Shown: positions 32,703 to 52,446, counted from the stretch's first letter. The stretch is 64,000 nt of DNA from Minisyncoccota bacterium (GCA_965267345.1 OZ253947.1:138814-202813), one strand, 5' to 3'. The notes: a model not told the origin generated them from the letters alone. Program-made: numbers and translations.

Positions 32703-33344
32703 ATGTGTCAATTTGACTACTCAGTGCGGTGGTATACTAAGAGTGTGAAAGTGCGCTATATTGTCGGCATTGACGAGGCAGGGCGAGGGCCGCTCGCCGG
32801 ACCGCTGGCAGTTGGCGCCGTCTGCGCCCCCGCCGCATTTACCGTCGACCACGCGTTTTTTGAGAAAGGGATTCGCGACTCCAAAAAACTCACGATGGGG
32901 AAGCGCGAAGAGCTCTTCGGCTGGATCCGACACCACGACGAGCTGCGCCACGTTGTGTCGATGGTTGGTCCGCGCGTTGTTGATCGCGACGGCATCACCG
33001 CGGCAACGAATATCGCTATCATGCGCGCATTGCGTCGCGTGCTCCCTGAGGGGGTTACCGAGCGCGAGGTGCTCATTCTGCTTGACGGCGGCCTGCGGGC
33101 ACCACGCGCCTACCCGCAACAAGCAACGATCATTAAAGGTGATGAGCAGGAACCCCTCATCGCACTGGCATCTGTGGTGGCAAAGGTTTCTCGTGATGCA
33201 AAAATGCGCGCGCTTGCAGCACAATTTCCTGACTACGGGTTCGACGGCCACAAGGGCTATGGCACCAAGGAGCACATTAAGGCCATCAAAGCCTTTGGTA
33301 TGTGTAACTCCCACCGCCGCAGTTTTTTGACACGCTTTGCATAA
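32703..33344 (+). CDS. rnhB: Ribonuclease HII
   Basis: IVGIDEAGRGPLAGPL is the canonical RNase HII start motif. The ATG at 32703 adds a 14 aa leader; a later GTG start is possible. Confidence 0.85.
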   Translation: MCQFDYSVRWYTKSVKVRYIVGIDEAGRGPLAGPLAVGAVCAPAAFTVDHAFFEKGIRDSKKLTMGKREELFGWIRHHDELRHVVSMVGPRVVDRDGITAATNIAIMRALRRVLPEGVTEREVLILLDGGLRAPRAYPQQATIIKGDEQEPLIALASVVAKVSRDAKMRALAAQFPDYGFDGHKGYGTKEHIKAIKAFGMCNSHRRSFLTRFA

Positions 33345-33390
33345 CGTTGTACAGTGCAGCTACGCCAATTTCAGAGGCCAAGGAGGAATC

Positions 33391-33645
33391 GTGGCTGATA
33401 AAGGAAATGACGCAGAAACCGTTCTTACGGCTGAACGCCTTCGCAAGGTGCTAGACCGCGGCGTTCCTGAGCTGATTGCGAGTCAGTGCGTATGTTGCCC
33501 TTTTTGCCGCCATAAATCGGCGGGTCAGGTATGCAACATGTGCGAGGAGGATGATCATTTCGAGCCTCTTTCGGGACTTGATCCCGACAGCGATGAGTTC
33601 AAGAATCGCATGGATGCACACCTCAAAAAGGTGCATAGCCAATAA
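33391..33645 (+). CDS. Small Cys-cluster (zinc-ribbon-like) protein upstream of rpmF
   Basis: GTG start 5 nt after AAGGAGG. CVCCPFC..x9..CNMC. The position upstream of L32 is where DUF177/YceD-type Cys4 proteins usually sit. Confidence 0.4.
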   Translation: MADKGNDAETVLTAERLRKVLDRGVPELIASQCVCCPFCRHKSAGQVCNMCEEDDHFEPLSGLDPDSDEFKNRMDAHLKKVHSQ

Positions 33646-33760
33646 GACAATCTCTGCGACTAACATGGCGTACGGGCGCATTGCTGCAAAGCGATGCGCC
33701 CGTAGTTATATCTGCAAAAAACCATTGCTATTTACCAAATTTTACGTATAATCTCACACC

Positions 33761-34048: not shown

Positions 34049-34137
34049 CCACAAACGTACGTAGCGCAAGACGCCGGAAATACACAGTATGCACTTCCGG
34101 CGTATTTTAATGTGCTACAGTATAGTCACGTTGTACC

Positions 34138-35043
34138 ATGTCAAATCGGCACACCGCACGTTCGATTGTTCTTCAGACACTCTTCGAGCTTGACTCGGAG
34201 GGTGGCGATGTTTCTCGTGCCGATGACACACTCGTAGCCAATGCGCAGGAGTTTGCGCCAAATGCACAATCACTGTTTCCGTTCATGAAGCAGCTGATGG
34301 AGACGGCGCTGGCAAAGCGTGGCGAAATCGACACGATTATCACCAAGGCCGCTCCTGAGTGGCCGCTTGAGCGTATTGCGGTCATGGATCGTAATATTCT
34401 GCGTATTGGTCTCACCGAGCTCCTTTTTGGTGACCGCGAGCAGGTACCGCCTAAGGTTGCCATTAACGAGGCGATTGAGTTGGCAAAAGAGTTCGGTGGT
34501 GAATCAAGCGGACGCTTCGTCAACGGCGTACTCGGTGCCGTCTACAAGGAAATCGGTGAGCCGGGAAAAGAAGAGACAGGAAAGAAAAAACTTCTTGAAG
34601 ATGAGACGCTGGCAACCGAAGAGGTCATTGGCGCCGTTGTCTATGCAGAGGAAGACGGCGAACTCTACGTTGCCCTCGTGCACGATGTATTTGGCCACTG
34701 GACGCTACCGAAAGGTAAGCTCAAAGACAGTGAAGACCCACACGACGGGGTGGTGCGGAAAATTAAAGAAGAGATCGGCCTTGCGGTCACCGTTGAGCAT
34801 GAGTTGGGCGAGAATACCTACATTGCCAGTAATCCTGACGAGGGGCGCAAAAAACGCCACGGACGCTATTACCTCGCGAAAGCGCCATTTAATGAGCTAC
34901 AACTCAAAGGCGAGGGCGGACTTGATGACGCACAGTGGTTTAAATTAGCTAACATTGTCGAACTCAACTTCTACGACGATATTTTGCCCGTCATTACGCG
35001 AGCAGTTAACGTACTCGCGCAACCACGCACACCACAGGAGTAA
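34138..35043 (+). CDS. nusB: NusB-like antitermination domain fused to a C-terminal NUDIX hydrolase domain
   Basis: Residues 1 to about 140 are NusB-like (ARSIVLQTLFELD.., RIAVMDRNILRIGLTELLF, INEAIELAKEFGGE). Residues from about 160 carry a NUDIX box (GKLKDSEDPHDGVVRKIKEEIGL). Confidence 0.7.
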   Translation: MSNRHTARSIVLQTLFELDSEGGDVSRADDTLVANAQEFAPNAQSLFPFMKQLMETALAKRGEIDTIITKAAPEWPLERIAVMDRNILRIGLTELLFGDREQVPPKVAINEAIELAKEFGGESSGRFVNGVLGAVYKEIGEPGKEETGKKKLLEDETLATEEVIGAVVYAEEDGELYVALVHDVFGHWTLPKGKLKDSEDPHDGVVRKIKEEIGLAVTVEHELGENTYIASNPDEGRKKRHGRYYLAKAPFNELQLKGEGGLDDAQWFKLANIVELNFYDDILPVITRAVNVLAQPRTPQE

Positions 35044-35083: not shown

Positions 35084-35773
35084 ATGATTGACTTTACCCC
35101 ATTTGAAACACGCATTGGCGTGACGTTTCAGGACAAGACGCTGTTACAGACAGCGTTTACGCACCGTTCATACGTCAACGAAAATCGTGCAACAGTGAAG
35201 GAGCACAACGAGCGCCTTGAGTTTCTCGGTGACGCAGTGCTCGAGCTGGTCATTACTGACTTTCTCTATAAGAAATACCCCGAGCGCCCCGAGGGTGAAC
35301 TCACGGCGTTCCGTGCCGCGCTGGTAAATACCCAGAGTATTTCTGAAGCGGCGAGCGAGCTGGGTATGAATGACTATCTGCTCCTCTCACGTGGTGAGGC
35401 AAAAGACACGGGACGCGCGCGGCAGTACATACTCGCAAATACATTTGAGGCACTGATCGGCGCGCTGTACTTAGATCAGGGTTACGATGCTGCACACGCA
35501 TTCATTCGCAGCACGCTGTTTGATAAAATCGAGACTATTGTTGCCGAGCGACTCTGGCAAGATGCAAAAAGCTATTTTCAGGAAAAAGCGCAAGAAACGT
35601 ATTCCGCAACTCCGTCGTACGAACTCGTGGATGAAGTTGGGCCCGATCACGATAAGAAGTTCGTTGCCGCAGCGCTGATTAATGATGAACGCATCGCCAC
35701 CGGCGAAGGGCGCTCAAAACAAGAGGCTGAGCAAGAAGCGGCGCGTAAGGCACTCGAAGTTAAGGGGTGGTAG
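35084..35773 (+). CDS. rnc: Ribonuclease III
   Basis: HRSY..ERLEFLGDAVLELV signature and a C-terminal dsRBD. Confidence 0.9.
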   Translation: MIDFTPFETRIGVTFQDKTLLQTAFTHRSYVNENRATVKEHNERLEFLGDAVLELVITDFLYKKYPERPEGELTAFRAALVNTQSISEAASELGMNDYLLLSRGEAKDTGRARQYILANTFEALIGALYLDQGYDAAHAFIRSTLFDKIETIVAERLWQDAKSYFQEKAQETYSATPSYELVDEVGPDHDKKFVAAALINDERIATGEGRSKQEAEQEAARKALEVKGW

Positions 35774-35889: not shown

Positions 35890-35944
35890 CGTTGTCCTGC
35901 AGTGTGCTACTACGACCACAGCGGGGGTTTGGTATACTTTGCAC

Positions 35945-38116
35945 ATGCATCTCAAGCGCATAGAGCTGTCAGGATTTAAGTCATTTGCGAAAAAAGGTGC
36001 GCTTGAATTTACGTCACCCATTGCCGCTATTGTGGGGCCGAACGGCTCAGGCAAGTCAAATACTGCAGAAGCATTTCGCTTCGTACTCGGTGAGCAGTCA
36101 ATGAAGGCCATGCGCGGCAAGCGCGGTCCCGATTTAATCTGGTCGGGGAATGAGCGCACGCCACGGGCAAACCGTGCGCGGGTGACGGTGGTGTTCAACA
36201 ATACCGACCGCTTTTTAGATATTGATTTCGAAGAAGTGGCGATTGAGCGTAGCGTGTATCGTGATGGTGCCAATGAGTACACGATCAACGGAAGCAAGGT
36301 TCGCTTGAAAGATGTTGCCGCACTCCTTGCCGGCGCAAATATCGGCGGCTCAGGGCATCACATTATTTCACAAGGAGAAGCTGACCGTATTCTCGGTGCC
36401 TCGCCGCGCGAACGCCGCGACATGATCGAAGACGCACTCGGCCTTAAAACGTATCAGTACAAAAAGGTCGAAAGCGAAAAGAAGCTTGAAAAAACGATTG
36501 AAAACGTCAAAGACGCCAAGGGGCTGCGACGGGAGATTGCGCCGCACCTTGCCTTTTTGCAACGACAAATGGAAAAGCGCGAACGGGCGCAACAGCTTAC
36601 TCACGAACTTGCCGAACACTACGCTGTGTACTGCGCTACTGAGGCCGCGCGTCTTGATGCTGAGGAGCAGCGCATACGCGAAGCACGCACGCAGCCGACC
36701 GATGCACTTGCGGCCATTGAGCGTGCGCTCAAACAGCTCCAGACGCAGCACACCACAGCAACACAGGCAGAGCAGACGAAACCCCTAAAAGACATTGAGA
36801 CACGCCGCCACCAACTGATGGAGGAAACTGCGTCACTGGAACGTGCACGCGGGCGCATTGAAGGACAGATTGCGCTCGTTGAAAAGAATACGCGCGCGGC
36901 GTCAGGCGAGTCGCATGTGGCGTTTGGTACAGTACGCACGGAATTGGATCACATCAAACAGACGCTCACCCGCGTTGCAGAAACCGGCAATACCGATGAA
37001 CTCAATGCGGTTATCACCCGCATCGACGCATTTTTGCAGACACATGCTGACGATACGACTGGCGCCGCACACGACACTGAGGCACTGGCGCAGGAACTGC
37101 GCGACGAACGACACGCAATTGAAGCCTCATTGCAGAAAGTGGCTGAACAGAGTGCGACGCTCGAGAATGAGTACACGGCACTCATGCAGACGATTGAGCA
37201 GGAGCGTGCGCAAGAGCGCGAAGCGCAGAAAGAACTCTATGAGTATCGTGAACAAAAACGTGAACGTGAACGCGAACTCGAAGCACTTGACCGCGAACAC
37301 GCGCAACTCACCCAAGAGCGCAATGAGTTGGCGGCGGTACTTGAAGACGCGCGCCGCGTGTGCGATGAGAGCTCGCTCGCCGGCGCACCTGCACACGAGG
37401 CGGCAACGCGGACGCAGCAGCGTGAGCGTTTGCGCGAGATCGAACGTATTACAGTGCGCCTTGATGAGGCAGGTGTGGTTGATGAAGATACAGTGAAAGA
37501 GTTTGATGAAACACAAAAGCGTGATGCCTTTCTTGAGCGTGAAATTGCCGATCTGGAACAGTCGCGACAGCAGCTCCTCGATATCATTGCGCAACTCGAG
37601 AGTGAGATTGCGACACGATTCACTCATGGTCTCGAAAAAATTAATGGCGAATTTCAGACGTTCTTTGCGATGCTCTTTGATGGCGGCAAGGCAAAGCTGC
37701 ACATAGTCAAGAAAGAGCGTGCAACTGACGAGGAGGGTGACGATGATGCCGACGAGGGGAAAGAGGGTATTGATATTCAGGTGCAGTTGCCGCGTAAGAA
37801 AATCACCACACTTGATGTCCTTTCAGGTGGTGAGCGCGCACTAACGTCAATTGCACTGATTTTTGCGATGTCACAGGTTAATCCACCGCCATTTATCATT
37901 CTCGACGAAACAGATGCAGCGCTCGATGAGGCGAACTCGCGTAAGTACGCCGATATGGTGCGGACTCTCTCGAAGCACAGTCAGCTCATTTTAATTACGC
38001 ACAACCGCCAAACCATGGAAGCTGCCGGTGAACTCTACGGGGTCACCATGGGGAGCGACGGGATCTCAAAACTGCTCTCAGTAAAATTTGACGAAGCAGT
38101 CCAAGTGGCTAAGTAG
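35945..38116 (+). CDS. smc: SMC-family chromosome segregation ATPase (short)
   Basis: Walker A (GPNGSGKSN), long coiled coils, ABC signature (LSGGERALTSIAL) and Walker B (FIILDETDAALD). About 723 aa. Confidence 0.72.
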   Translation: MHLKRIELSGFKSFAKKGALEFTSPIAAIVGPNGSGKSNTAEAFRFVLGEQSMKAMRGKRGPDLIWSGNERTPRANRARVTVVFNNTDRFLDIDFEEVAIERSVYRDGANEYTINGSKVRLKDVAALLAGANIGGSGHHIISQGEADRILGASPRERRDMIEDALGLKTYQYKKVESEKKLEKTIENVKDAKGLRREIAPHLAFLQRQMEKRERAQQLTHELAEHYAVYCATEAARLDAEEQRIREARTQPTDALAAIERALKQLQTQHTTATQAEQTKPLKDIETRRHQLMEETASLERARGRIEGQIALVEKNTRAASGESHVAFGTVRTELDHIKQTLTRVAETGNTDELNAVITRIDAFLQTHADDTTGAAHDTEALAQELRDERHAIEASLQKVAEQSATLENEYTALMQTIEQERAQEREAQKELYEYREQKRERERELEALDREHAQLTQERNELAAVLEDARRVCDESSLAGAPAHEAATRTQQRERLREIERITVRLDEAGVVDEDTVKEFDETQKRDAFLEREIADLEQSRQQLLDIIAQLESEIATRFTHGLEKINGEFQTFFAMLFDGGKAKLHIVKKERATDEEGDDDADEGKEGIDIQVQLPRKKITTLDVLSGGERALTSIALIFAMSQVNPPPFIILDETDAALDEANSRKYADMVRTLSKHSQLILITHNRQTMEAAGELYGVTMGSDGISKLLSVKFDEAVQVAK

Positions 38117-38849: not shown

Positions 38850-40799
38850 TTAGGACGCGGCGATCGTCCAGTCGAGTTGCCGTGCATCGGTATCAACGTT
38901 CGTGAGCGTGATTCGCACGGTGTCGCCAATACGAAATGTCTTGCCGGTTTTGGTGCCGACGACCGCGTAGTTTTTTTCATCGAGCTCGTACCAATCATTG
39001 GGCATATCGCTCAGGCGCACCATGCCTTCAGCGCGGCTCTTTTCCTCAGCAACAAAAATGCCGTTTTTGCCGACACCCGTAATGGTACCGGTGAACGTTT
39101 CACCTACGTGTCCTTCCATGTACTCAATTTGTTTGAGCTTAACGGATGCACGCTCAGCGTCGACGGCTTCAACTTCACGCTGGCTCGAGCGAATTGCCTG
39201 ATCGTGGTAGAGCGCCAACTCTTTTGGTGAAAACGATGAGCCGTTGAGGTGTGCGGCGAGCAAGCGGTGTACCATCATGTCAGGGTAGCGGCGAATTGGC
39301 GACGTGAAGTGTGTGTAGTCGCTAAAGCCGAGCGAAAAGTGTCCGATGTTCTTGTCGCTGTACACTGCTTTCGCCATCGTACGCAGTGTTGCCATTTGAA
39401 TGACCGCTTCTTCGGGTGATCCCTTAATCGCACGGAGGAGCTTTGCAATATCACGTGCCTCAATACGTGTCGGATCTTTGTCGAGTTGGTCGTACCCGAG
39501 TGCTTTCACAAAGACGTTGAGTGTTTGAATCTTTTCCGGATCAGGTGCGTCGTGTACGCGATACACACGTGGCGACGCCCCCTTGGTGTGTTCGGTCAGG
39601 TGTTTCGCGACGGTGCGGTTTGCCAGTAGCATAAACTCCTCGATGAGCTTCATGGTGTCGAGGCGCTCTTTAACGTACACGTCTATCGGGCGTCCTGCCG
39701 CGTCGAGCTCAAACTGAATTTCCTCACTGTCAAAGTCGAGTGCGCCGGCGGCGAAACGCTTAGCACGCAGAGTTTGTGCAAGCTTCCACAGCGCACCGAG
39801 TTCGTGTGCGTAGTCGCCACGACCGCTATCAATCGCATCTTGTGCGGTGCGGTAGGTGAAGCGCTTATCTGAGGAGATCAGCGTTTTGGCAAAGTGATAA
39901 TCGACAACGGTGCCATCGTCAGCGAGTGTGAAAATAACAGAAAAAGCCCGCTTTTCCTCATTCGGATTCAGACTACATAAGTCATTTGAAAGTACTTCGG
40001 GGAGCATCGGGATGGTGCGGTCAACAAGATACACCGAGGTCGCCCGCTTTTTCGCCTCCTTGTCGAGTTCTGAGTGCGGCTGCACGTAGTGGGTCGCGTC
40101 GGCAATGTGCACGCCTACTTGCAGCGTGCCGTCCTCAAGTGTTTGCACGGAAAGGGCGTCGTCAAAGTCTTTTGCATCAACGGGGTCAATGGTGAATGTC
40201 GGCGCTGTGCGGAAATCCTCCCGCGCGGCAACGTCCGACTCGGTAATGGCACGCTCGTCAAGAAGTGCCTGCGCTTCTTGTTCAACAGCAGCGGGGAAGC
40301 CGCTCTGGAATCCACGCTCGAGCAGAATGGCTTTCATTTCTACTTCGTGATCACCGGCAGGGCCAAGAACCGTAACGAGACGTGCACGTGGCGCATGTGC
40401 ATCCGATGCCCACTCGCGCATTTCGATAAGCACTTTGTGACCCGATTCAAGCGTGCGCGATGGCTCTTCGAGTACAAACGGCATGCGGACTCGCTGGTTA
40501 TCGGGCTTCACGATCCATACATCTTCAGTGCCCTTGTCGCGCGTGCGCTGATTCTTCTCAAGAGTACCGACGAACTGATGTTGCGCTCGTTCGATAATGC
40601 GCGTGACGATACCTTCAGCTCGGTGCCCATTCTTATGTGGAAGTAGCTGTACCGCAACGGTATCGCCGTGGAATGCGGTGCCGAGGTTATCACGCGAAAT
40701 TAAAATGTCTTCGCCCTGATGGGCAATAGGAAAAAAGCCCAAACCGCTGCGAATGATGGTGATTGGTCCGGTGTATGTTTTGGTATCTTTCGTTTTCAT
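38850..40799 (-). CDS. rnr: Ribonuclease R (RNB-family 3'-5' exoribonuclease with C-terminal S1 domain)
   Basis: RNB catalytic region and a C-terminal S1-like region. ATG at 40799 chosen; ORF opens at 40823. Confidence 0.88.
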   Translation of the reverse strand: MKTKDTKTYTGPITIIRSGLGFFPIAHQGEDILISRDNLGTAFHGDTVAVQLLPHKNGHRAEGIVTRIIERAQHQFVGTLEKNQRTRDKGTEDVWIVKPDNQRVRMPFVLEEPSRTLESGHKVLIEMREWASDAHAPRARLVTVLGPAGDHEVEMKAILLERGFQSGFPAAVEQEAQALLDERAITESDVAAREDFRTAPTFTIDPVDAKDFDDALSVQTLEDGTLQVGVHIADATHYVQPHSELDKEAKKRATSVYLVDRTIPMLPEVLSNDLCSLNPNEEKRAFSVIFTLADDGTVVDYHFAKTLISSDKRFTYRTAQDAIDSGRGDYAHELGALWKLAQTLRAKRFAAGALDFDSEEIQFELDAAGRPIDVYVKERLDTMKLIEEFMLLANRTVAKHLTEHTKGASPRVYRVHDAPDPEKIQTLNVFVKALGYDQLDKDPTRIEARDIAKLLRAIKGSPEEAVIQMATLRTMAKAVYSDKNIGHFSLGFSDYTHFTSPIRRYPDMMVHRLLAAHLNGSSFSPKELALYHDQAIRSSQREVEAVDAERASVKLKQIEYMEGHVGETFTGTITGVGKNGIFVAEEKSRAEGMVRLSDMPNDWYELDEKNYAVVGTKTGKTFRIGDTVRITLTNVDTDARQLDWTIAAS

Positions 40800-41082
40800 A
40801 CGTATCTTGTAGCACCTTTGCACAGAAATCGTAGGCGCAACTTATCAACAACTAGTCGCGGTGTGTGTCTGTGCTAGAATAGCGAACAGGTGTTCGTTCG
40901 CTCTCTCTAACAGGAGGGCGCGGCCGCACGCCTCAATTTTGGAGGGGTGCGGTATTTTTTACCTGACCGGTAGATTAGAACGCACAAACCGATCAGTGTC
41001 AATCACGCCGAGAATGACGGAGCAGCAGAAAAGGCAGAAACTATAGACATTGGATATTATTTTGCTATAGTTGCGCGCACAT

Positions 41083-42189: not shown

Positions 42190-42834
42190 ATGATTCACTT
42201 TCATATCATTACACTCTTTCCCGAGTCAATCGAGTGCTATTTCAACGCCTCCATGCTCAAGCGCGCTCAGGCGGACAAAAAAATACGCGTGTCATTCTAC
42301 AATCCACGTGACTACACGACTGACAAACATCGCCGCGTTGATTACCGACCGTACGGCGGCGGCCCGGGGATGGTGCTGGAAGCCGAGAGCGTCTTGCGAG
42401 CTGCTGAAGCAGCAATTGGCCGTAAAAAGGATGTGGAGGTGATCTTTTTCTCGCCAAGCGCCAAGCAGTTTGAACAAAAAGACGCAGTGCGCATTGCAAA
42501 AAAAGCAAAGCACGTTGTCTTTCTCTGCGGGCACTACGAAGGCATTGATGCTCGTGCTGTTAAGATTTTAAAGGCGAAGCCACTTTCAATTGGTCCGTAT
42601 GTGCTCACTGGTGGGGAGTTGCCGGCGGCACTTGTTGCCGATGCGGTTGCGCGTAATGTTGAAGGAGTGCTTGGTAACGCCGAGTCACTTGAAGACTCAC
42701 GTGTTGCTAGCCCAGAAGTGTACACGCGCCCCGAGGTATTTGAATGGAAGAAAAAGAAGTACCGTGTGCCAAAGGTGCTCGTCTCCGGACATCACAAAAA
42801 AATAGAAGAGTGGAAAGCAAAAAAGAAAAAGTAG
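42190..42834 (+). CDS. trmD: tRNA (guanine37-N1)-methyltransferase
   Basis: MIHFHIITLFPE .. YGGGPGMVL is the SPOUT/TrmD signature. Confidence 0.92.
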   Translation: MIHFHIITLFPESIECYFNASMLKRAQADKKIRVSFYNPRDYTTDKHRRVDYRPYGGGPGMVLEAESVLRAAEAAIGRKKDVEVIFFSPSAKQFEQKDAVRIAKKAKHVVFLCGHYEGIDARAVKILKAKPLSIGPYVLTGGELPAALVADAVARNVEGVLGNAESLEDSRVASPEVYTRPEVFEWKKKKYRVPKVLVSGHHKKIEEWKAKKKK

Positions 42835-43619: not shown

Positions 43620-43766
43620 TTTTGACGATTGTGTCACGGGTGCAATAAAAAGAGTTTTAATACAAGTGTGTTGTGCGGCTAACCAATGTGCCGCGTAACT
43701 CTTTTACTAGGTGTGTGTAATTAGAAAACGAGAACGCTCGGTGGAGCGATTCTTGTGCTGTGTGTT

Positions 43767-46700
43767 ATGAGCAAAACCACGCTTCCTAAGAAGTACTTCG
43801 GTCAGTTTACCGAAAACATGACCGAGACGCCAAACCTTGTGCGTGAACAACTCGATTCGTACGAGTGGCTCATCGAAGAAGGAGTCAAATCTGTCTTCGA
43901 CGAGTTCTCGCCGATTGCCGACTACTCCGGCAAAAAGTTCGACCTGAGCATTTCCAAGTTCAGTTTCGGCAAGCCTGAGTACGACGAGCACTACGCAAAA
44001 CTCAAGCGACTTACCTACAAAATCCCGCTGCGCATTGATGCGAAGCTGGTGAATAAGACAACAGGAGAAACCAAGAGCCAAGAAATCTTCATGGCCGACT
44101 TCCCGTACATGACCGATCACGGTACGTTCATCATCAACGGTGTTGAGCGTGTGATCGTGCCGCAGCTTGCGCGTTCCTACGGCGTATTCTTCCTGAAGAA
44201 TCTGCTTAAGGGTGCCGAGTACTTCGGTGCGAAAATTATCCCCGCACGTGGCGCATGGGTGGAGATCGAAAGCGAACCGGATGGTGCCATTTACGTCAAG
44301 ATTGACCGCAAGCGCAAATTCTCCGTTACCATTTTGCTCAAAGTCTTCGGACTCGAAACACCTGAGAAAATGCAGAAAGCATTTAAGGGCGTGAAAGGCG
44401 CTGAGGATGTTCTGAAGGCATCACTCGACCACGATGCAACCGAAACACTCGACGACGCTTACATCGAAATCTACAAGCGCCTTCGCGACGGCGACTTGGC
44501 GACACCGGAAAATGCTCGCGAGTTTGTCAACAGCATCTTCAGCGAAGATCGCTACGACCTGTCACGCGTTGGTCGCTACCAGTTCAACCACCGCTTCGGC
44601 CTTGAAACAAAGGAGAAAGCACTCGGCGACCAGATTCTCTCACAGGACGACATAGTACGCATCGTCAGCAACATTATTGAGCTCAACAACACACCACACG
44701 CACAAGAGGACGACATCGACCACCTTGGCTTTCGTCGCGTGCGCTACGTTGGTGAAATGATGCAGCACCAAGTACGCATTGGTATGAGCCGCATGAAGCG
44801 CAACATCCAAGACCGCATGTCTACCGTTGATGTTGAGACGAGTTTGCCGATTCAGTTCATCAACCCACGTCCGTTCCAAGCGGCGATTATGGAGTTCTTC
44901 TCAACGAACCAATTGTCGCAGTTTATGGATCAGAACAACATCCTCGGTGAGCTGGAGCACTTGCGTACACTCTCGGCACTCGGTCCCGGAGGACTCACAC
45001 GTGAGCGTGCGGGCTTTGACGTTCGCGACGTGCACACCAGTCACTACGGACGCCTCTGCCCAATTCAGACACCGGAAGGTCAGAACATCGGTCTGATTCT
45101 TCGCTTGGCCGTCCACGCGCGCCTCAACGACTTTGGTATTATCGAAACACCATACGCGCGGGTCAAAAACGGCAAGGTGACAGACGAAATTGTCTACCTC
45201 AACGCACTTGAAGAAGAAGAGCACCTTATCGTGCACGCAGCAACAAAGCGCGACAAGAGCGGTAAGATTCTTGCCGACCTTGTTGAAGCGCGCCGCCACG
45301 GTGAGCCGGAATTCGTCTCACCAAATGACGTTGCCTTCATTGAAGTGGCAACGAACCAAGCTTTCTCGGTGGCAACAACCATGATTCCATTCCTTGAGCA
45401 CGACGACGCAAACCGTGCGCTCATGGGTTCGAACATGCAGAAGCAGGCAACACCATGCGTGGTGCCCGAGGTGCCGTTCGTCGCCACCGGTATTGAAGAG
45501 AATGCTGCGCGCGACTCAGGGCGCCTCATTATTGCCGACGAAGCGGGTACCATCACCTACGCAGATTCACGCAAGATTGTCCTGAAAGACACCAAAGGTA
45601 AAGAGCATGAGTACTCACTCGTAAACTTCTCGCGCACCAACAACATGTCGGTACTGCACCAGCGTGTGTCGGTGGCGGTCGGCGACAAGGTCAAGCGCGG
45701 CGACGTCTTGGCCGACAACTCATCGAGTGTTGACGGACAAATTGCCATCGGGCAAAACGTGCGTGTCGCATTTATGTCATGGGCCGGCGCAAACTACGAG
45801 GACGCGATTGTCATCTCAGAGCGTCTGGTGAAGCAGAGTAAATTCACGACGATTCACGTAGAAGAGTTCGTTGCGTACGTACGCGACACCAAGCTCGGCC
45901 CTGAAGTGACCACACACGACATTCCAAACGTAAGCGAGATGAAGCTTCGCAACCTCGACGAAGAGGGCGTGGTACGCATCGGTGCGGAGGTACGCCCCGG
46001 TGATATTCTGGTTGGTAAAGTCACCCCAAAGGGTGAGACACAGCTGACACCGGAAGAGCGCCTGCTACGTTCTATCTTCGGTGAAAAGGCAAAAGACGTG
46101 AAAGACACGTCACTGCGCATGGAAGCAGGGAAGCGCGGCCGCATTGTTGGCGTGCGTGTATTCTCACGCGAAAATGGCGACCAGCTCGAGAGCGGCATCA
46201 TCAAGCGTATTCACATTGAAGTTGCACAGCTCCGTAACGTGTCAGTCGGTGACAAGCTCGCCGGTCGTCACGGTAACAAGGGTGTGATCTCTCGTGTCCT
46301 TCCTGAGGAAGACATGCCGTACACGAAAGACGGTGAGCCAATTGACATCATTCTGACACCGCTGGGCGTGCCAAGTCGTATGAACTTGGGACAGATTCTT
46401 GAAATGCACCTCGGGCTCGCTGCCGGTGAGCTCGGCTATCAGGCTATCGTGCCGCCATTCTCAGGCACCACAGAAGACGAAATCGTTGCCGAACTCAAGG
46501 CGGCGGGATTCCCTGAGAGCGGAAAAATGACACTCAAAGACGGTCGCACGGGCGAAGCATTCGATCAGGACATTGCGGTCGGCAATATGTACATCTTGAA
46601 GCTGCACCACATGGTGGAAGACAAAATCCACATGCGCTCGGTTGGACCATACTCAATCACGACGCAGCAGCCACTCGGTGGTAAGGCCCAGAACGGTGGT

Positions 46701-46940
46701 CAGCGAATCGGAGAGATGGAAGTGTGGGCATTCCTCGGCTACGGTGCGGCGTACGCACTGCGGGAAGTGCTCACCATCAAATCTGACGACATTCTGGGAC
46801 GTTCAGCAGCCTTTGACGCCATTGTGAAGGGCGAGCGTATCCGCCAGCCAAACGTGCCGGCGACCTTCAACGTGTTGATTCGTCACCTGCGTGGTTTGGC
46901 ACTGGACATCAATTTAGAAAAAGATAGCGAGACTAAGTAG
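43767..46940 (+). CDS. rpoB: DNA-directed RNA polymerase beta subunit (compact form)
   Basis: Full set of rpoB conserved blocks, including the rifampicin-region-like segment. 1058 aa from ATG 43767. Confidence 0.97.
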   Translation: MSKTTLPKKYFGQFTENMTETPNLVREQLDSYEWLIEEGVKSVFDEFSPIADYSGKKFDLSISKFSFGKPEYDEHYAKLKRLTYKIPLRIDAKLVNKTTGETKSQEIFMADFPYMTDHGTFIINGVERVIVPQLARSYGVFFLKNLLKGAEYFGAKIIPARGAWVEIESEPDGAIYVKIDRKRKFSVTILLKVFGLETPEKMQKAFKGVKGAEDVLKASLDHDATETLDDAYIEIYKRLRDGDLATPENAREFVNSIFSEDRYDLSRVGRYQFNHRFGLETKEKALGDQILSQDDIVRIVSNIIELNNTPHAQEDDIDHLGFRRVRYVGEMMQHQVRIGMSRMKRNIQDRMSTVDVETSLPIQFINPRPFQAAIMEFFSTNQLSQFMDQNNILGELEHLRTLSALGPGGLTRERAGFDVRDVHTSHYGRLCPIQTPEGQNIGLILRLAVHARLNDFGIIETPYARVKNGKVTDEIVYLNALEEEEHLIVHAATKRDKSGKILADLVEARRHGEPEFVSPNDVAFIEVATNQAFSVATTMIPFLEHDDANRALMGSNMQKQATPCVVPEVPFVATGIEENAARDSGRLIIADEAGTITYADSRKIVLKDTKGKEHEYSLVNFSRTNNMSVLHQRVSVAVGDKVKRGDVLADNSSSVDGQIAIGQNVRVAFMSWAGANYEDAIVISERLVKQSKFTTIHVEEFVAYVRDTKLGPEVTTHDIPNVSEMKLRNLDEEGVVRIGAEVRPGDILVGKVTPKGETQLTPEERLLRSIFGEKAKDVKDTSLRMEAGKRGRIVGVRVFSRENGDQLESGIIKRIHIEVAQLRNVSVGDKLAGRHGNKGVISRVLPEEDMPYTKDGEPIDIILTPLGVPSRMNLGQILEMHLGLAAGELGYQAIVPPFSGTTEDEIVAELKAAGFPESGKMTLKDGRTGEAFDQDIAVGNMYILKLHHMVEDKIHMRSVGPYSITTQQPLGGKAQNGGQRIGEMEVWAFLGYGAAYALREVLTIKSDDILGRSAAFDAIVKGERIRQPNVPATFNVLIRHLRGLALDINLEKDSETK

Positions 46941-46945
46941 CGCCT

Positions 46946-49900
46946 ATGAAGACAAACAAAGAAACACTCATCAACGACTTCGATCAGGTGACGCTTAAGC
47001 TCGCCAGTCCGGAGCGCATCGAAGAATGGTCACGCGGCGAAGTAACCAAGCCCGAGACCATTAACTACCGCACGCAGCGACCGGAGAAGAACGGTTTGTT
47101 CGACGAAAAGATTTTCGGTCCGGAAAAAGACTTCGAATGTTACTGTGGGAAGTACCGCGGCATTCGCTTTAAGGGCATTGTGTGTGAAAAGTGTGGTGTT
47201 GAAGTCACCCGCAGCGTCGTGCGTCGTGAGCGCATGGGGCACATTGAATTGGCGACACCTGTTGCCCATATCTGGTTCCTGCGCGGCATTCCGTCACGCA
47301 TCGCACTGATGCTCGGCATTTCAGCGTCTGACGTTGAAAAGGTGGTCTACTTTGCCGGCTACATCATTACGAAGGTGATCGACGAAGAGAAGGCACGCTT
47401 GCTGAAGGATCTGGAAAACGAATTTAAAGCAAAGGCGAAAGACCTCAAAGACGAAAACGCCAAAAAGAAACTCAAAGACATGGCAAGTGCTGCCAAGAAG
47501 GAAATTGAGAGTATTAAGGAAGGTATCGTGCTCGACGAGGCCGACTACCACAAGTTTGCCCTCAAGTACTCAGCATGTTTTGAGGCACGCATTGGTGCGG
47601 AAGCACTGTACGACATCTTCAAAAATGTCGACCTTAAAACGTTCAAAGACGAGCTGCTTACCCAGTACGAAAAAGCAGGTGCTGCTGATCGCGCGAAACT
47701 GCAGAAGCGCATTGCACTCGTCAGCAACATGATTGAGGCCAACATCCGCCCTGAGTGGATGTTTATGACGCGACTCCCTGTTATTCCGCCGGCGCTGCGT
47801 CCGATGGTGGCACTGGAAGGTGGTCGCCACGCCAGCTCCGACATCAACGACCTCTACCGTCGTGTCATCAACCGAAACAATCGACTCAAAAAACTGAAAG
47901 ACATTTACGCACCCGACGTTATTTTGCGTAACGAAAAGCGCATCTTGCAGGAAGCGGTTGACGCGCTGCTCGATAACTCAGTACGTCGCGGCAACACGGC
48001 CTACTCGGTCGGTGGGCAACGCACCCGTCCGCTGAAGTCACTCGCTGATTACCTGAAGGGTAAGCAGGGGTACTTCCGTCAGAACTTGCTCGGTAAGCGT
48101 GTCGACTACTCAGGTCGCTCGGTGATTGTGATCGGTCCGACACTCGCACTCGACCAGTGTGGTCTGCCAAAGATGATGGCACTTGAGCTGTTCCGTCCGT
48201 TTGTGATTGCGGGACTGCTCGAGCGAGAAATTGCCTACAACATTCGCGGCGCCGGTCGCCTCATTGAAGAGGGTATTCCGGAAGTGTGGGCGATCCTCGA
48301 AGAGGTGATTAAAGACAAATTCGTATTGCTCAACCGCGCACCAACACTGCACCGTCAGAGTATGCAGGCATTTCGTCCGGTGCTCATCGAAGGTTCGGCA
48401 ATTCAGCTGCATCCGCTCGTCTGTGAAGCATTCAACGCCGACTTCGACGGTGACCAGATGGCCGTGCACGTACCGCTGTCAGCGGAAGCACAGCTTGAGG
48501 CACGCGAAATCATGTCGGCACACAAAAATATTCTCAAGCCCGGATCCGGTGACGTGACGACCAACGCGCGTCAGGACATGATTCTCGGTATCTACTGGAT
48601 GACCAAAGAGGTAGCGGGCGCCAAAGGCGAGGGCCGCACCTTCGAGAGCACCAACCGCGCTATCGGTGCGTACGACTACGACATCGTTGACTTCCGCGCA
48701 AAAATTCAGGTGCTCCCAAGTGATTCACCAAAGTACGCACAGTTTGAGGGCAAACTCTTCGAGACAACCGTTGGCCGTCTGCTCTTTAACTCAGTGCTGC
48801 CGACCGACTTCCCGTACATTAACGAGACCATTGACCGTCGCAAGATGAGCGCCATCGTGGATGATCTCATCGCACAGTACGGACTCGAAGGCATGCCAAG
48901 CATCCTCGACAAGATCAAAGACTTCGGCTTCAAGTACGCAACACACGCCGGTATTACGTGGGGACTCTCAGACTTGGCAACACCGGTGAAGAAAGACGAC
49001 ATTATCGAAGAGAGTACGAAGGCCGTCCTCGAACTGCGCGAGCAGTACAATGAAGGACTCCTCTCTGACGCAGAGCGTCGCCGTATGACCATTGAAATCT
49101 GGCACAAGGCGAAAACGGCAATTGAGGAATCGGTTATGGAGGCTGTTGATCCAAACGGATCAGTGCACGACATGATTACCTCAGGTGCGCGTGGTTCTGT
49201 CGGACAGCTCACCCACATGACGGGTATGAAGGGACTCATCCAGAACCCGAACGGTGACATTATTGAGACTCCCGTTATTGCCTCATACAAAGAGGGTATG
49301 ACGCCAATTGAGTACTTCATTACCACACACGGTTCGCGTAAGGGTCTGGCCGACACGGCACTCAAGACCGCACAGGCGGGATACCTGACCCGTCGTCTGT
49401 TCGACGTGGCACAGGACATTGTGGTGACCGAAGACGACTGTGGTACGCGTGACGGTATTACCATTTACCGTGTGAACGCACTTGGCATGGAAATTCCGTT
49501 CGATCACTCACTCAAAGGTCGCGTGCTCGCTGAAGAGCTGAAGGTTGGAGACGATACCTTCAAGAAGGGACACTTGGTGACCACACTCGAGGCAATCGCC
49601 ATTCAGGCATCTGACATTCAGGAAGCAGTGGTGCGCTCGCCAATGACCTGTAAGACACAGCGTGGCGTCTGCCAGAAGTGTTACGGTTTCGACATGACCA
49701 CAAATGAACTGGTACGCATCGGTGAAGCCGTTGGTACCGTTGCTGCGCAGTCACTGGGTGAGCCATCAACACAGCTGACCATGAACACGAAGCACGCCGG
49801 TGGTGCCGCCTCAGTTGGTGGTGACATTACCCAAGGTTTGCCGCGTGTTGAAGAAGTGTTCGACCGCCGTTCACCAAAGAACCCGACTGCCATTGCACAC

Positions 49901-50623
49901 ATTGATGGTGTGGTGTCAGACCTGATCAAAGACGGTGACGACACAATCATCACACTGCTCCCTGAGGGTAGCAGCAAGAACGCGCGTAAGCGTGATATCG
50001 AGTACCGCGTGCCGGCCATTCGCCAAATTCTCGTGAAGAAGGGCGAGGCAGTCACCAAGGGACAATTCATGACTGATGGTTCTGCCGACCTTGAGGATCT
50101 CTTCCGCTACGGTGGCAAGGAGGCGACGCAGGAGTACATCATTTCTGAAATCAATAAGATTTACGAGCTGCAGGGTATTACGGTATCGCGCAAGCACCTC
50201 GAAGTCGTCATCAAACAGATGTTCTCACGTCGCAAAATTAAGACAGCGGGTGATACGAAATTCACTGCCGGTCAGGTGGTTGAAGATGTTGAACTCGAGC
50301 GCGAAAACGAGCGCGTAAAGGGCGAAGGTGGCACTGCTGCCGTTGGTGAACAGCTCGTCAGTGGTATTACCGAAACTGCACTGACACGTGACAGCTTCCT
50401 GTCAGCGTCATCATTCCAGAACACGACCCGCAAGCTCTCTGAAGCAGCGGTACGTGGTGCGGTTGATAAACTCGAAGGACTGAAAGAAAACGTTATCGTT
50501 GGACGCCTCATTCCGGCCGGTAGTGGCTTTGAGGGCAGCGAAAAGTATGCAGCAGTACACGAACTCAAGAACGAACTCGATCGTCTCGATCGCGAGGCGA
50601 TGGCAGCAGCAGACGACGAGTAG
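46946..50623 (+). CDS. rpoC: DNA-directed RNA polymerase beta' subunit
   Basis: Zinc-binding CxxC..CxxC N-terminus and NADFDGD catalytic motif. 1225 aa. Confidence 0.97.
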   Translation: MKTNKETLINDFDQVTLKLASPERIEEWSRGEVTKPETINYRTQRPEKNGLFDEKIFGPEKDFECYCGKYRGIRFKGIVCEKCGVEVTRSVVRRERMGHIELATPVAHIWFLRGIPSRIALMLGISASDVEKVVYFAGYIITKVIDEEKARLLKDLENEFKAKAKDLKDENAKKKLKDMASAAKKEIESIKEGIVLDEADYHKFALKYSACFEARIGAEALYDIFKNVDLKTFKDELLTQYEKAGAADRAKLQKRIALVSNMIEANIRPEWMFMTRLPVIPPALRPMVALEGGRHASSDINDLYRRVINRNNRLKKLKDIYAPDVILRNEKRILQEAVDALLDNSVRRGNTAYSVGGQRTRPLKSLADYLKGKQGYFRQNLLGKRVDYSGRSVIVIGPTLALDQCGLPKMMALELFRPFVIAGLLEREIAYNIRGAGRLIEEGIPEVWAILEEVIKDKFVLLNRAPTLHRQSMQAFRPVLIEGSAIQLHPLVCEAFNADFDGDQMAVHVPLSAEAQLEAREIMSAHKNILKPGSGDVTTNARQDMILGIYWMTKEVAGAKGEGRTFESTNRAIGAYDYDIVDFRAKIQVLPSDSPKYAQFEGKLFETTVGRLLFNSVLPTDFPYINETIDRRKMSAIVDDLIAQYGLEGMPSILDKIKDFGFKYATHAGITWGLSDLATPVKKDDIIEESTKAVLELREQYNEGLLSDAERRRMTIEIWHKAKTAIEESVMEAVDPNGSVHDMITSGARGSVGQLTHMTGMKGLIQNPNGDIIETPVIASYKEGMTPIEYFITTHGSRKGLADTALKTAQAGYLTRRLFDVAQDIVVTEDDCGTRDGITIYRVNALGMEIPFDHSLKGRVLAEELKVGDDTFKKGHLVTTLEAIAIQASDIQEAVVRSPMTCKTQRGVCQKCYGFDMTTNELVRIGEAVGTVAAQSLGEPSTQLTMNTKHAGGAASVGGDITQGLPRVEEVFDRRSPKNPTAIAHIDGVVSDLIKDGDDTIITLLPEGSSKNARKRDIEYRVPAIRQILVKKGEAVTKGQFMTDGSADLEDLFRYGGKEATQEYIISEINKIYELQGITVSRKHLEVVIKQMFSRRKIKTAGDTKFTAGQVVEDVELERENERVKGEGGTAAVGEQLVSGITETALTRDSFLSASSFQNTTRKLSEAAVRGAVDKLEGLKENVIVGRLIPAGSGFEGSEKYAAVHELKNELDRLDREAMAAADDE

Positions 50624-50685
50624 AGCGCGCGGTGCGCTATACTGTGAGTCACGGGCAGACCAGCCCGCGCACCAATACGCGTATG

Positions 50686-52419
50686 AGTACTGTTGACCAA
50701 ATCAAAGGACGTCTGTCTATTGAGGATGTTGTTGCGCAGTACGTAAAACTGACACCTGCCGGCGCAAACATGAAGGCGCGCTGTCCCTTTCACAATGAGC
50801 GTACGCCGTCATTCATGATTTCACCGGCGCGGCAGACGTACCACTGCTTCGGGTGCGGTGTCGGTGGCGATATGTTCACCTTCATTCAGGAAATCGAAGG
50901 GCTCGATTTCAAAGGTGCACTCAAGCTTCTTGCCGACAAGGCGGGTGTGGAGATCACCTACGAACCGCGCGAGGATCGCGACGAGAAGGACGAGCTGTAC
51001 GCGCTCATGGAAGCAGCGACAGTGTTCTTTGAGAAGCAGTTTGCCGACCACACAGCGGCACAGAAGTACATGGACGAGCGCGGGGTTACGCAGAAAACGC
51101 GCACGGCGTTTCGTATCGGATTTGCACCCGACGCATGGGATGCACTACTCACACATCTCAGGGCGCAGGGCTTTAGCGACGCGCGTATTGAAGCGGCCGG
51201 ACTCAGTAAGCGTGGCGAGCGTGCCAATCGATACTACGATCGATTTCGCTCGCGCATCATGTTCCCGATTGCCGACAGCGCCGGACGCGTCGTTGCGTTT
51301 TCGGGGCGAATTTTCTCGTCTGAACAGCAAAAAAGCACAAAAGGGGAGGGCGAGGTCGCTAAGTACATTAACTCGCCGGAGACACCGCTCTATCACAAAT
51401 CGCGTTTGTTGTACGGCTACGATCGCGCACGGCAGAGCATCCGAAAACTCGACTTTGCTATTTTGGTTGAAGGGCAGATGGATCTGCTTGCCACGCATCA
51501 GGCAGGGTACACAAATACAGTGGCACTTTCCGGCACGGCACTCACACCCGAGCACATTACGCTGTTGAGTCGCATGTCGCACAATCTCGTCATCGCGCTT
51601 GACGCTGATGACGCGGGTGTCGCCAGTGCAGGGAAGAGTGCGCGCGCAGCGCTCCGTGCCGGTTTTGACGTGAAGATTGCCGAACTCCCCGAAGGAAGCG
51701 ACCCCGCCGACATTCTTGCCGCGGGCGACGCTGACGTATGGCGCGACGTCATTAAAAATGCGGGGCACGTTATTGAGTTTCTACTTGCACGGTACCGTCG
51801 CCGCGCAGCCGACGAACGTGCATTCAAGCGAGCTGTCGAAAAGCACGTGCTGCCGTTTCTTGCCGACATTACGAGTGAAATAGATAAAACGCACTTCATA
51901 CAACTCGTCGCAGCGCGCTTGAAGGTAAGTGAAGAAGTGGTACGGACTGCACTTGCCGATGTTGCGCGGAACGAAGATTCGTTTGTTACATCTGCCGCTG
52001 ATAGCGCACACAAGCGAACAACTGCGCCTGATGCACAGGAAACACTTATACAGCTCCTCAAGTGGCAGAAACAATTACCGAAACCCGCGGTTGACGTTGC
52101 GAACGTGGAAGCGCAGCTCGAGGAACTCCTCACTCCAGTCGGCGTGTCGGCGCTACAGGAGAAGCTCAAAGACGACACGCACGCTGCGTTTCGCTTCGAA
52201 GCACTGTTTGGTGATGCTGAGAGCGTGCAGCATGCAACAGAAGAGCTCCTCATTCGTCTCAAGAAAGAGCTGCTCACGGCAGCACTGCAGCAGGCGATTG
52301 AGCAACTGCGACAGGCAGAGAGTGAAGGGGATACCGCGCGCGTCGCGCAGTACCAGAAGGACTGTCAGGATTTACATACCCAATTACGTGATTTGCAAGA
52401 TGCAGGTGTTGAAAATTAG
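50686..52419 (+). CDS. dnaG: DNA primase
   Basis: CPFHNERTPSF..YHCFGCGVGGD zinc ribbon and TOPRIM. ATG 50686 chosen; the ORF's GTG at 50632 overlaps the -10 element. Confidence 0.9.
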   Translation, partial: STVDQIKGRLSIEDVVAQYVKLTPAGANMKARCPFHNERTPSFMISPARQTYHCFGCGVGGDMFTFIQEIEGLDFKGALKLLADKAGVEITYEPREDRDEKDELYALMEAATVFFEKQFADHTAAQKYMDERGVTQKTRTAFRIGFAPDAWDALLTHLRAQGFSDARIEAAGLSKRGERANRYYDRFRSRIMFPIADSAGRVVAFSGRIFSSEQQKSTKGEGEVAKYINSPETPLYHKSRLLYGYDRARQSIRKLDFAILVEGQMDLLATHQAGYTNTVALSGTALTPEHITLLSRMSHNLVIALDADDAGVASAGKSARAALRAGFDVKIAELPEGSDPADILAAGDADVWRDVIKNAGHVIEFLLARYRRRAADERAFKRAVEKHVLPFLADITSEIDKTHFIQLVAARLKVSEEVVRTALADVARNEDSFVTSAADSAHKRTTAPDAQETLIQLLKWQKQLPKPAVDVANVEAQLEELLTPVGVSALQEKLKDDTHAAFRFEALFGDAESVQHATEELLIRLKKELLTAALQQAIEQLRQAESEGDTARVAQYQKDCQDLHTQLRDLQDAGVEN

Positions 52420-52446
52420 CAAAAACAATATAGAGTAGTAAGAATT

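Follow-up and report, generated by a model that had tools for sequence, protein, structure and literature searches.

NusB is a universal protein, normally made of a single domain, which nucleates the rRNA antitermination complex. In the NusB-NusE-BoxA complex of Aquifex, F122 of NusB stacks on U8 of BoxA, and E81 as well as helix alpha7 contact the BoxA RNA (PMC3177189). A protein with an enzyme fold, SuhB, is also known as a subunit of the rrn antitermination complex (PMC6614797, PMC6614801). As to the Nudix family, Ap4A hydrolases stack the adenine on a Tyr or Phe following the Nudix box and on a second aromatic residue (PMC2425470, PMC4734340), and the adenine-stacking aromatic of ApnA hydrolases is found about 17 residues after the box (PMC2425470). 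There are also Nudix domains that bind their ligand without cleaving it. CF Im25 binds Ap4A without hydrolysis within an RNA-processing factor (PMC2425470), and constructs carrying the NUDT9-H box of TRPM2 bind ligand without hydrolysis, for which the authors blame critical substitutions in the box (PMC4974056).

Here we describe a gene, nusB-nudix, which joins these two kinds of domain in one polypeptide. The window, i.e. the whole stretch of 64,000 nucleotides that was analysed, comes from a small CPR genome, has a GC content of 53% and is about 95% coding. At 34138..35043 on the plus strand, a reading frame read from the sequence runs uninterrupted from ATG to TAA over 301 codons plus the stop. 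Pfam recognises both halves: PF01029 (NusB) matches residues 5-137 over model positions 1-133 of 133 (E 2.3e-31, 109.4 bits vs a cut-off of 23.1), and PF00293 (NUDIX) matches residues 164-278 (E 6e-13, 49.4 bits vs a gathering score of 21.1). An all-helical NusB domain takes up residues 1-139 (34138..34554, plus strand), as delimited by PF01029, TIGR01951 and Foldseek; a Lys/Glu-rich linker, GEPGKEETGKKKLLEDETLATE, follows at residues 140-160 (34555..34617, plus strand) and is marked by low pLDDT and low identity among relatives; the rest, residues ~161-296 (34618..35025, plus strand), is a Nudix-fold domain which looks like an Ap4A/Ap6A hydrolase by PF00293 and Foldseek. The preliminary description had read a single ORF of 301 aa with a complete NusB and a NUDIX domain, and the reading frame, Pfam and TIGR01951 agree with it. 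No alternative-frame ORF at this locus encodes either domain.

The NusB half reaches 117.7 bits with the nusB equivalog TIGR01951 (cut-off 88.35) over model positions 1-130 of 131, is modelled by AlphaFold (AF2) with a pLDDT of ~90-97 across residues 1-139, and is superposed by Foldseek on the Aquifex NusB chain 3r2d_B with a TM of 0.89 and an rmsd of 1.9 A. Contacts to BoxA were mapped by combining a HMMER alignment to Aquifex NusB with the residue list of PMC3177189. In this mapping, the stacking F122 of Aquifex becomes F127, which is invariant in alignments of 42 and 74 sequences reaching down to 28% identity, and E81 becomes D84, which is at least 90% conserved in the same two alignments; both are conserved even in orthologues with 28-59% identity. 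Equivalog score, all-alpha fold and BoxA-contact residues are thus all those of a NusB. In this organism the nusB-nudix product very probably functions as NusB, and its NusB half would be expected to bind S10 and BoxA. Neither a second NusB gene nor a second Nudix gene occurs within the 64-kb window. Models of RsmB match the NusB half as well (E 7e-11, 41.5 bits vs a cut-off of 319); identity with RsmB/Sun was rejected, as these models cover the NusB part only and the methyltransferase domain is absent.

Regarding the distribution of the fusion, we searched 5.8 billion clustered proteins, and the best 120 of 8000 matches all carry PF01029 together with PF00293, with lengths of 294-317 aa in 110 of them, 249-278 aa in four and 323-366 aa in six. 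A search with a profile of divergent members listed 8000 candidates, every one with E<=1e-10, and again the best 120 are all fused, so that the survey of domain architectures in related genomes proposed by the preliminary description gives the same answer in both searches. The ~300-aa NusB-Nudix architecture is shared by thousands of protein clusters, and at the 50% clustering level there are 42 fused full-length representatives with identity down to 28%. The fused relatives derive from independent NCBI, JGI, ENA, Logan and Tara assemblies; one of them (P0001) is 100% identical to our protein and is encoded on a contig of 644,490 bp. In a GTDB scan with one genome per species, relatives are encoded in more than 506 species representatives, and all 80 loci examined match nearly all of the query, beginning at residue 1-2 and ending at residue 287-300. 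The group names, where recorded, are Paceibacterota, Minisyncoccia, Parcubacteria and Patescibacteria, as well as Kaiser-, Adler-, Wolfe-, Zambryski-, Yonath-, Nomura- and Moranbacteria; essentially all carriers of nusB-nudix belong to the Paceibacteria/Parcubacteria group of Patescibacteria. The fusion is ancient and vertically inherited across this clade. Within the close family, the mean pairwise identity is 67% for NusB, 62% for Nudix and 48% for the linker, values which point to a similar constraint on the two domains.

The C-terminal half belongs to the Nudix superfamily by both its PF00293 score above the cut-off and its alpha/beta/alpha fold. In Foldseek comparisons it matches the Aquifex Ap4A hydrolase 3i7u_A (aq_158; TM 0.85-0.86, rmsd 2.3 A) and the Thermus Ap6A hydrolase Ndx1 (1vc8_A; TM 0.82-0.85), and further matches are the Ap4A hydrolases of Chlamydia (CT771, 4MPO), C. 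elegans (1KTG) and human (NUDT2, 3U53), together with the mycobacterial MutT1/Rv2985 (9CXX), titled 'Nudix diadenosine polyphosphatase'. The non-catalytic Nudix domain of NrtR (3gz8) had the top E-value in one Foldseek run, and Dcp2 and BdRppH gave significant matches ranked below the ApnA hydrolases. Judged from the predicted model, Ap4A/Ap6A hydrolases are the closest solved folds. Among the substrates suggested in the preliminary description, Np4A fits these folds, while (p)ppGpp and NAD caps find no specific support. Subfamily models all stay far below their cut-offs, with 30.7 of 475 bits for MutT1 (NF052459), 24.5 of 118 for RppH (PRK00714) and 23.7 of 148 for MutT. RppH membership was rejected at this equivalog cut-off; a MutT1-type 8-oxo-(d)GTP phosphatase was rejected since the match is limited to model positions 4-116 of 292 and no histidine-phosphatase domain follows the Nudix domain, with which the protein ends. 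The Nudix domain is acidic, with a pI of 4.9 and a net charge of -10, a charge more in keeping with a small Mg-nucleotide ligand than with extended RNA binding, and one that speaks against a general RNA-binding surface.

An exhaustive phmmer search with the Nudix domain alone found 135 proteins at E<=1e-10 among 1.84 billion cluster representatives, so this is a narrow Nudix subfamily. The best 150 matches comprise 42 full-length fusions, some of them as little as 28% identical to the query domain, and 23 stand-alone-like proteins of ~140 aa; the remainder are mostly fragments or truncated fusions. Two relatives of 140 aa with lower identity, P0251 and P0260, are truly stand-alone: their genes are surrounded by unrelated metabolic genes, and nusB is absent from the vicinity. 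The 'stand-alone' matches of highest identity (e.g. P0124 and P0134) were discounted as probable fragments of fused genes, for their contigs measure 0.7-1.8 kb and their sequences show the signature of the fused family.

The Nudix box lies at residues 193-215 (34714..34782, plus strand) and reads GKLKDSEDPHDGVVRKIKEEIGL, that is, GX5EX7-R-K-IXEEXGL. Compared with GX5EX7REUXEEXGU, six of the seven signature positions are canonical; at the seventh, Lys208 (AAA, 34759-34761) replaces the Glu of 'RE', and the box, which had been called intact in the preliminary description, is therefore not a canonical one. The replacement is a clade-level state: over the seven signature positions, 99 of the 120 nearest relatives have GERKEEG and 8 have GEREEEG. 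In the central clade, represented by the 120 sequences nearest the family profile, GEREEEG is found in 64 and RE in 92, and 15-17 show a 'KR' swap. The catalytic residues erode further in the 42 divergent fused representatives, where R207 is kept in 27, E211 in 22, E212 in 36 and G214 in 31, and position 208 is K in 9, E in 9, V in 9, I in 8 and A in 5. The box positions are canonical in 17-22 of the 23 stand-alone-like relatives, and none of 240 close relatives departs from E212. Covariation with position 208 (K vs E) gave strong signals that are clade-confounded, and no compensatory change can be inferred from them.

Outside the box, the domain is held much more tightly in the 42 fused representatives, where W188, T189, K192, Y244, W267 and Y279 are each present in at least 40 and Y228 in 37. 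Erosion of the box is not an alignment artefact, because this part of the alignment has no gaps and W-T-x-x-K-G serves as its anchor; the lysine of the corresponding motif holds a sulphate at the P1 phosphate site of the substrate (PMC4734340). With catalytic residues eroding and the domain kept, a constitutive hydrolase activity should not be assumed. In a sequence alignment, Y228 and Y279 fall on tyrosines of the Aquifex Ap4A hydrolase, Y228 standing 13 residues after the box vs ~17 for the stacking residue of ApnA hydrolases. We infer, moreover, that Y279-x-D281 may resemble F128-x-E130 of the human enzyme; the C-terminal half alone, compared with PDB sequences, gave no meaningful match to map Y279 and D281 onto human F128 and E130. 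By alignment and motif resemblance, Y228, Y279 and D281 are candidates for the adenine-contact positions of Ap4A hydrolases.

The two domains are connected by a linker that begins straight after helix alpha7 of NusB, i.e. the BoxA-binding helix. Its start, GEPGK, is at least 93% conserved, and in 181 relatives G143 and E161 are mostly 18-22 residues apart. The preliminary description had named a lack of linker continuity in relatives as an argument against the fusion; the linker does vary in sequence and length, and the reading frame is never broken within it. With a shallow alignment, AlphaFold predicted two confident domains with a pLDDT below 50 at residues 142-154 and a pTM of 0.51, and with a diverse alignment of 74 sequences the mean pLDDT was 92.3, the pTM 0.69, and the only low-confidence stretch 146-149. 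The rise in pTM may hint at a preferred packing between the domains.

In the window, the local gene order is dnaE (minus strand), rnhB, a small non-conserved ORF, rpmF, nusB-nudix, rnc and a short SMC-like gene, beyond which, farther along, comes a gene of the RNase R/II type. Upstream of nusB-nudix on the plus strand are rnhB (RNase HII; 32703..33344, PF01351) and rpmF (ribosomal protein L32; 33761..34048, PF01783), and rnc (RNase III; 35084..35773, plus strand; Pfam Ribonucleas_3_3, Ribonuclease_3 and dsrm) starts 40 nt downstream. Between rpmF and nusB-nudix, a hairpin followed by AUUUUAA (34070..34108, plus strand) folds as RNA with -28.1 kcal/mol (z -2.84); it went unflagged in the consensus terminator scan, its loop apparently exceeding the limit of the scan. 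The same neighbours recur in related loci: rnc is directly downstream in 78 of 80, with a median gap of 59 nt, rpmF lies upstream in 75 of 80, and rnhB (72/80), dnaE (68/80) and smc (64/80) are present likewise. Divergent orthologues with an eroded box keep the order dnaE(-)/rnhB/(rpmF)/nusB-nudix/rnc, with a gap to rnc of 2-10 nt. The context of nusB-nudix with rnc is operon-like and conserved. Within the 64-kb window, the Rfam scan found one tRNA only, with no rRNA and no leader element, and neither an rRNA operon nor rpsJ was found.

From these results we propose that the gene encodes a NusB to which a nucleotide-binding module of the ApnA type is tethered, one whose ancestral form was hydrolytic, a reading to which we give equal chances of being right and of being wrong. 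Early in the lineage, the NusB of Paceibacteria would have gained a C-terminal Nudix domain from a small ApnA hydrolase. The NusB half would serve as the subunit of the rRNA antitermination complex that binds BoxA RNA and S10, and the Nudix module, on its flexible linker of 18-22 residues, would be placed beside the nascent rRNA leader, because the linker starts at the BoxA-binding helix alpha7. Since the fold and the non-box residues are kept everywhere and the catalytic glutamates are not, the function common to all members is most likely ligand binding, presumably of an adenine-nucleotide or polyphosphate ligand at the antitermination/processing complex; candidates would be free ApnA or NTP, or an Np4 or triphosphate RNA 5' end. 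Going by the boxes, hydrolysis is probably ancestral and would still be present in the central clade; in the RK clade, where the outcome is uncertain, it has probably become weaker or different, and several divergent side lineages have probably lost it. Which ligand is bound, and whether transcription or processing is affected, belong to the conjectural part of this proposal, and the link with rRNA biogenesis is strengthened by the neighbouring rnc and the conserved BoxA-contact residues.

There are points that speak against this explanation. Hydrolysis may be the main selected function in the canonical central clade, with erosion confined to fast-evolving side lineages, and a real hydrolase activity of the RK protein is quite possible, given its six of seven canonical positions and the invariant E212. 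The acidic Nudix domain also argues against extensive binding of the RNA body. A further claim, which we regard as rather doubtful, is that the Nudix domain is an integral, Paceibacteria-specific subunit of the antitermination/processing complex, being either an enzyme, brought in by NusB, that processes 5' ends (ppp or Np4 caps) during transcription, or a pseudo-enzyme with a SuhB-like role as a sensor of ApnA-type alarmones. If the pseudo-enzyme reading were true, rRNA synthesis and RNase III processing would be coupled to nucleotide status.

The main rival is a fully active pyrophosphohydrolase or decapping enzyme for RNA 5' ends, like RppH or Dcp2, tethered by NusB. NusB would sit on BoxA, close to the 5' end of the nascent leader of the rRNA, and the Nudix domain would turn 5'-triphosphates or Np4A/NAD-type caps into 5'-monophosphates, which would license turnover of the leader after RNase III cleavage. 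Np4 caps and their removal by a Nudix enzyme (RppH) are established in bacteria (PMC8833179, PMC7044304, PMC13010140), and with RNase III as the neighbour in 78 of 80 loci this makes the idea attractive. It is also in keeping with the ApnA hydrolases as closest fold and the significant matches to Dcp2 and BdRppH, with the order of helical domain, hinge and Nudix that parallels Dcp2, with the canonical box of the central clade, and with a linker starting at the BoxA-binding helix. However, the RK protein has Lys for the first Glu of REUXEE, and the low activity of NUDT9-H was explained by loss of a conserved Nudix-box Glu, constructs with its box being inactive (PMC4974056). In many orthologues that retain this operon context the box is heavily eroded; the Nudix domain, moreover, is acidic, and the score with RppH models is far below their cut-off (24.5 vs 118 bits). 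We consider such an enzyme unlikely.

Less likely still is a functionally unrelated fusion, in which a housekeeping Nudix protein that cleans Ap4A or NTP was joined to nusB in a streamlined genome for co-expression only. CPR genomes are small, the contig bearing nusB-nudix being 644 kb, the linker is flexible and poorly conserved, the first AlphaFold model had no confident interface (pTM 0.51), and the stand-alone relatives, encoded in unrelated surroundings, are small Nudix proteins of the ordinary kind. Nevertheless, the fusion is unsplit across more than 500 species and down to 28% identity, and the diverse alignment raises the pTM to 0.69. Orthologues without the catalytic residues keep a full-length Nudix domain, which a pure housekeeping enzyme leaves unexplained, and it is this retention after catalytic loss that makes a 'Rosetta-stone' fusion of unrelated parts improbable. 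A sequencing, assembly or gene-calling error that merged two neighbouring genes, which the preliminary description had advised checking, and for which the A-rich stretch GAAAGAAAAAAC in the linker region (~34580-34591) is frameshift-prone in principle, has virtually no chance of being right and is refuted, because the fusion is conserved with a continuous linker across a large lineage, hundreds of independent assemblies and more than 506 species representatives sharing the same frame with differing linker sequences, and either domain lacks any alternative-frame ORF.

Both domains are already known, as are fusions of NusB-like domains with enzymes (RsmB), and the proteins have public entries named 'transcription antitermination factor NusB'. 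What seems new is the NusB-Nudix architecture, which appears to be undescribed: neither the Nudix clan survey of 2017 (PMC5389931) nor any other paper found in the searchable literature mentions such a fusion. In this sense the preliminary description was right to regard the architecture as undescribed in print, although the proteins themselves are abundant in databases under the NusB annotation. A whole lineage of ultra-small uncultivated bacteria thus joins a Nudix domain of the ApnA-hydrolase type to NusB, beside RNase III. Should the Nudix domain work at the complex, it would tie dinucleoside-polyphosphate or 5'-cap chemistry physically and directly to rRNA transcription and processing, and the series from canonical to RK to eroded boxes would show an enzyme becoming a binding module. 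If it is there for co-expression only, the fusion would be a curiosity of streamlined genomes together with an annotation gap, the label being just 'NusB'.

Compared with known systems, the protein shares with the stand-alone NusB of Aquifex (PDB 3R2C/3R2D) the all-helical fold, the FVNGVL motif in alpha7 with F127, and D84 in place of Glu81; unlike it, the fusion has ~160 extra C-terminal residues, and its binding to S10 and BoxA is putative. With the Nudix Ap4A/Ap6A hydrolases and MutT1/Rv2985 it has in common a fold at TM 0.75-0.86, a length of ~135 aa and the W-T-x-x-K-G before the box, whereas the sequence identity is only 20-27% and the domain here is fused to NusB with Lys as the first Glu of REUXEE. 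The 16S rRNA m5C967 methyltransferase RsmB/Sun is alike in combining a NusB-like N-terminal RNA-binding domain with an enzyme domain acting on rRNA. However, the enzyme part of RsmB/Sun is a SAM methyltransferase, and at its N-terminus stands a paralogue of the cell's NusB, whereas the NusB half here passes the nusB equivalog cut-off. RppH and Dcp2 have the same Nudix fold, which in their case acts on RNA 5' ends, and Dcp2 has the same helical-hinge-Nudix order, but the family scores are far below the cut-offs and the domain here is acidic with a catalytic Glu replaced.

CF Im25/NUDT21, TRPM2 NUDT9-H and NrtR offer another comparison, since in them the Nudix fold is kept for a ligand (Ap4A, ADP-ribose) with the box glutamates substituted; they are not close homologues, and in our protein only one box residue is changed, so that activity may be kept. 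In the case of SuhB, a metabolic-enzyme fold was recruited beside NusB/NusE, and SuhB, the last to join, stabilises the E. coli complex; it has an inositol monophosphatase fold and is a separate polypeptide, so that the likeness is one of analogy only. Taken as analogies, the non-hydrolysing Nudix domains and SuhB are precedents that make it plausible to read the Nudix half of this NusB as a binding module.

The fusion of NusB and Nudix domains is found on both L045 (JBLHGD010000002.1) and L080 (JBLIMJ010000003.1), two contigs labelled 'Azotimanducaceae' and 'Acidimicrobiales', with an identity of 57-58%. Paceibacteria-type neighbours are collinear in all of the 80 related loci, and the two are probably MAG contigs that were placed in the wrong bin or given a wrong label. 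A different situation is met on L091 (ERZ25072076 ctg227973), which encodes the divergent fused protein P0270 of 315 aa with the Nudix box G-E-R-A-K-E-G. Its neighbours there, namely QRPTase, isochorismatase, PRA-CH, Fe-ADH and a large TPR protein, differ from the usual context, and both rpmF and rnc are absent from this neighbourhood; the locus may belong to a different lineage or be a relocated copy.

Regarding the variation within the protein itself, family position 158, directly before the Nudix domain, is occupied by Met in 120 of 181 relatives, where it might initiate a Nudix product of its own from within the gene, and by Leu (codon 34609-34611) in the protein of the window. Other, longer architectures occur in a few members of this narrow Nudix subfamily, that is P0213 (577 aa), P0225 (379 aa) and P0240 (1074 aa), the first of which carries NusB-like and Nudix segments within one protein.

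Between rpmF and nusB-nudix, RNA folding of the 92-nt intergenic region gave -28.1 kcal/mol with a z of -2.84, and a stable hairpin is located at 34070-34108, with the sequence ACGCCGGAA...UUCCGGCGU and AUUUUAA after it. By appearance it looks like a terminator or an attenuator; it was not flagged in the consensus terminator scan, apparently because its loop is long. Another hairpin, with a 15-bp stem, lies upstream of rpmF at 33671-33704, just past a Cys-rich ORF of 102 aa (33337-33645) which overlaps the end of rnhB. Pfam gave no match for this ORF and tblastn none across the 80 related loci, and therefore it is probably not a gene.

Downstream of rnc, an SMC-like gene (35939-38116) keeps the same position in 64 of the 80 related loci. 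Its product has only 725 aa, matched in pieces by the SMC_N model over residues 4-710, while bacterial SMC proteins are typically far longer. An RNase R/II-type exoribonuclease gene with RNB, CSD2 and S1 domains (38853-40823, reverse strand) is also near the cluster of rnhB, nusB-nudix and rnc, so that several RNA-processing genes are gathered in this region. Farther along, a tRNA (m1G) methyltransferase gene (42190-42834) precedes a single head-to-tail block (43755-53718) of rpoB, rpoC, dnaG (primase) and rpoD (sigma-70).

As for known systems, the predicted model of 34138-35040 was compared by Foldseek with two-domain Dcp2 structures, which gave about 250 aligned columns at an rmsd of about 11 A and 11-15% identity. 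The correspondence gives no evidence for homology of the helical halves and is an analogy of domain order: Dcp2 consists of a helical regulatory domain, a hinge and a Nudix domain, and the NusB-Nudix fusion has its domains in the same order.
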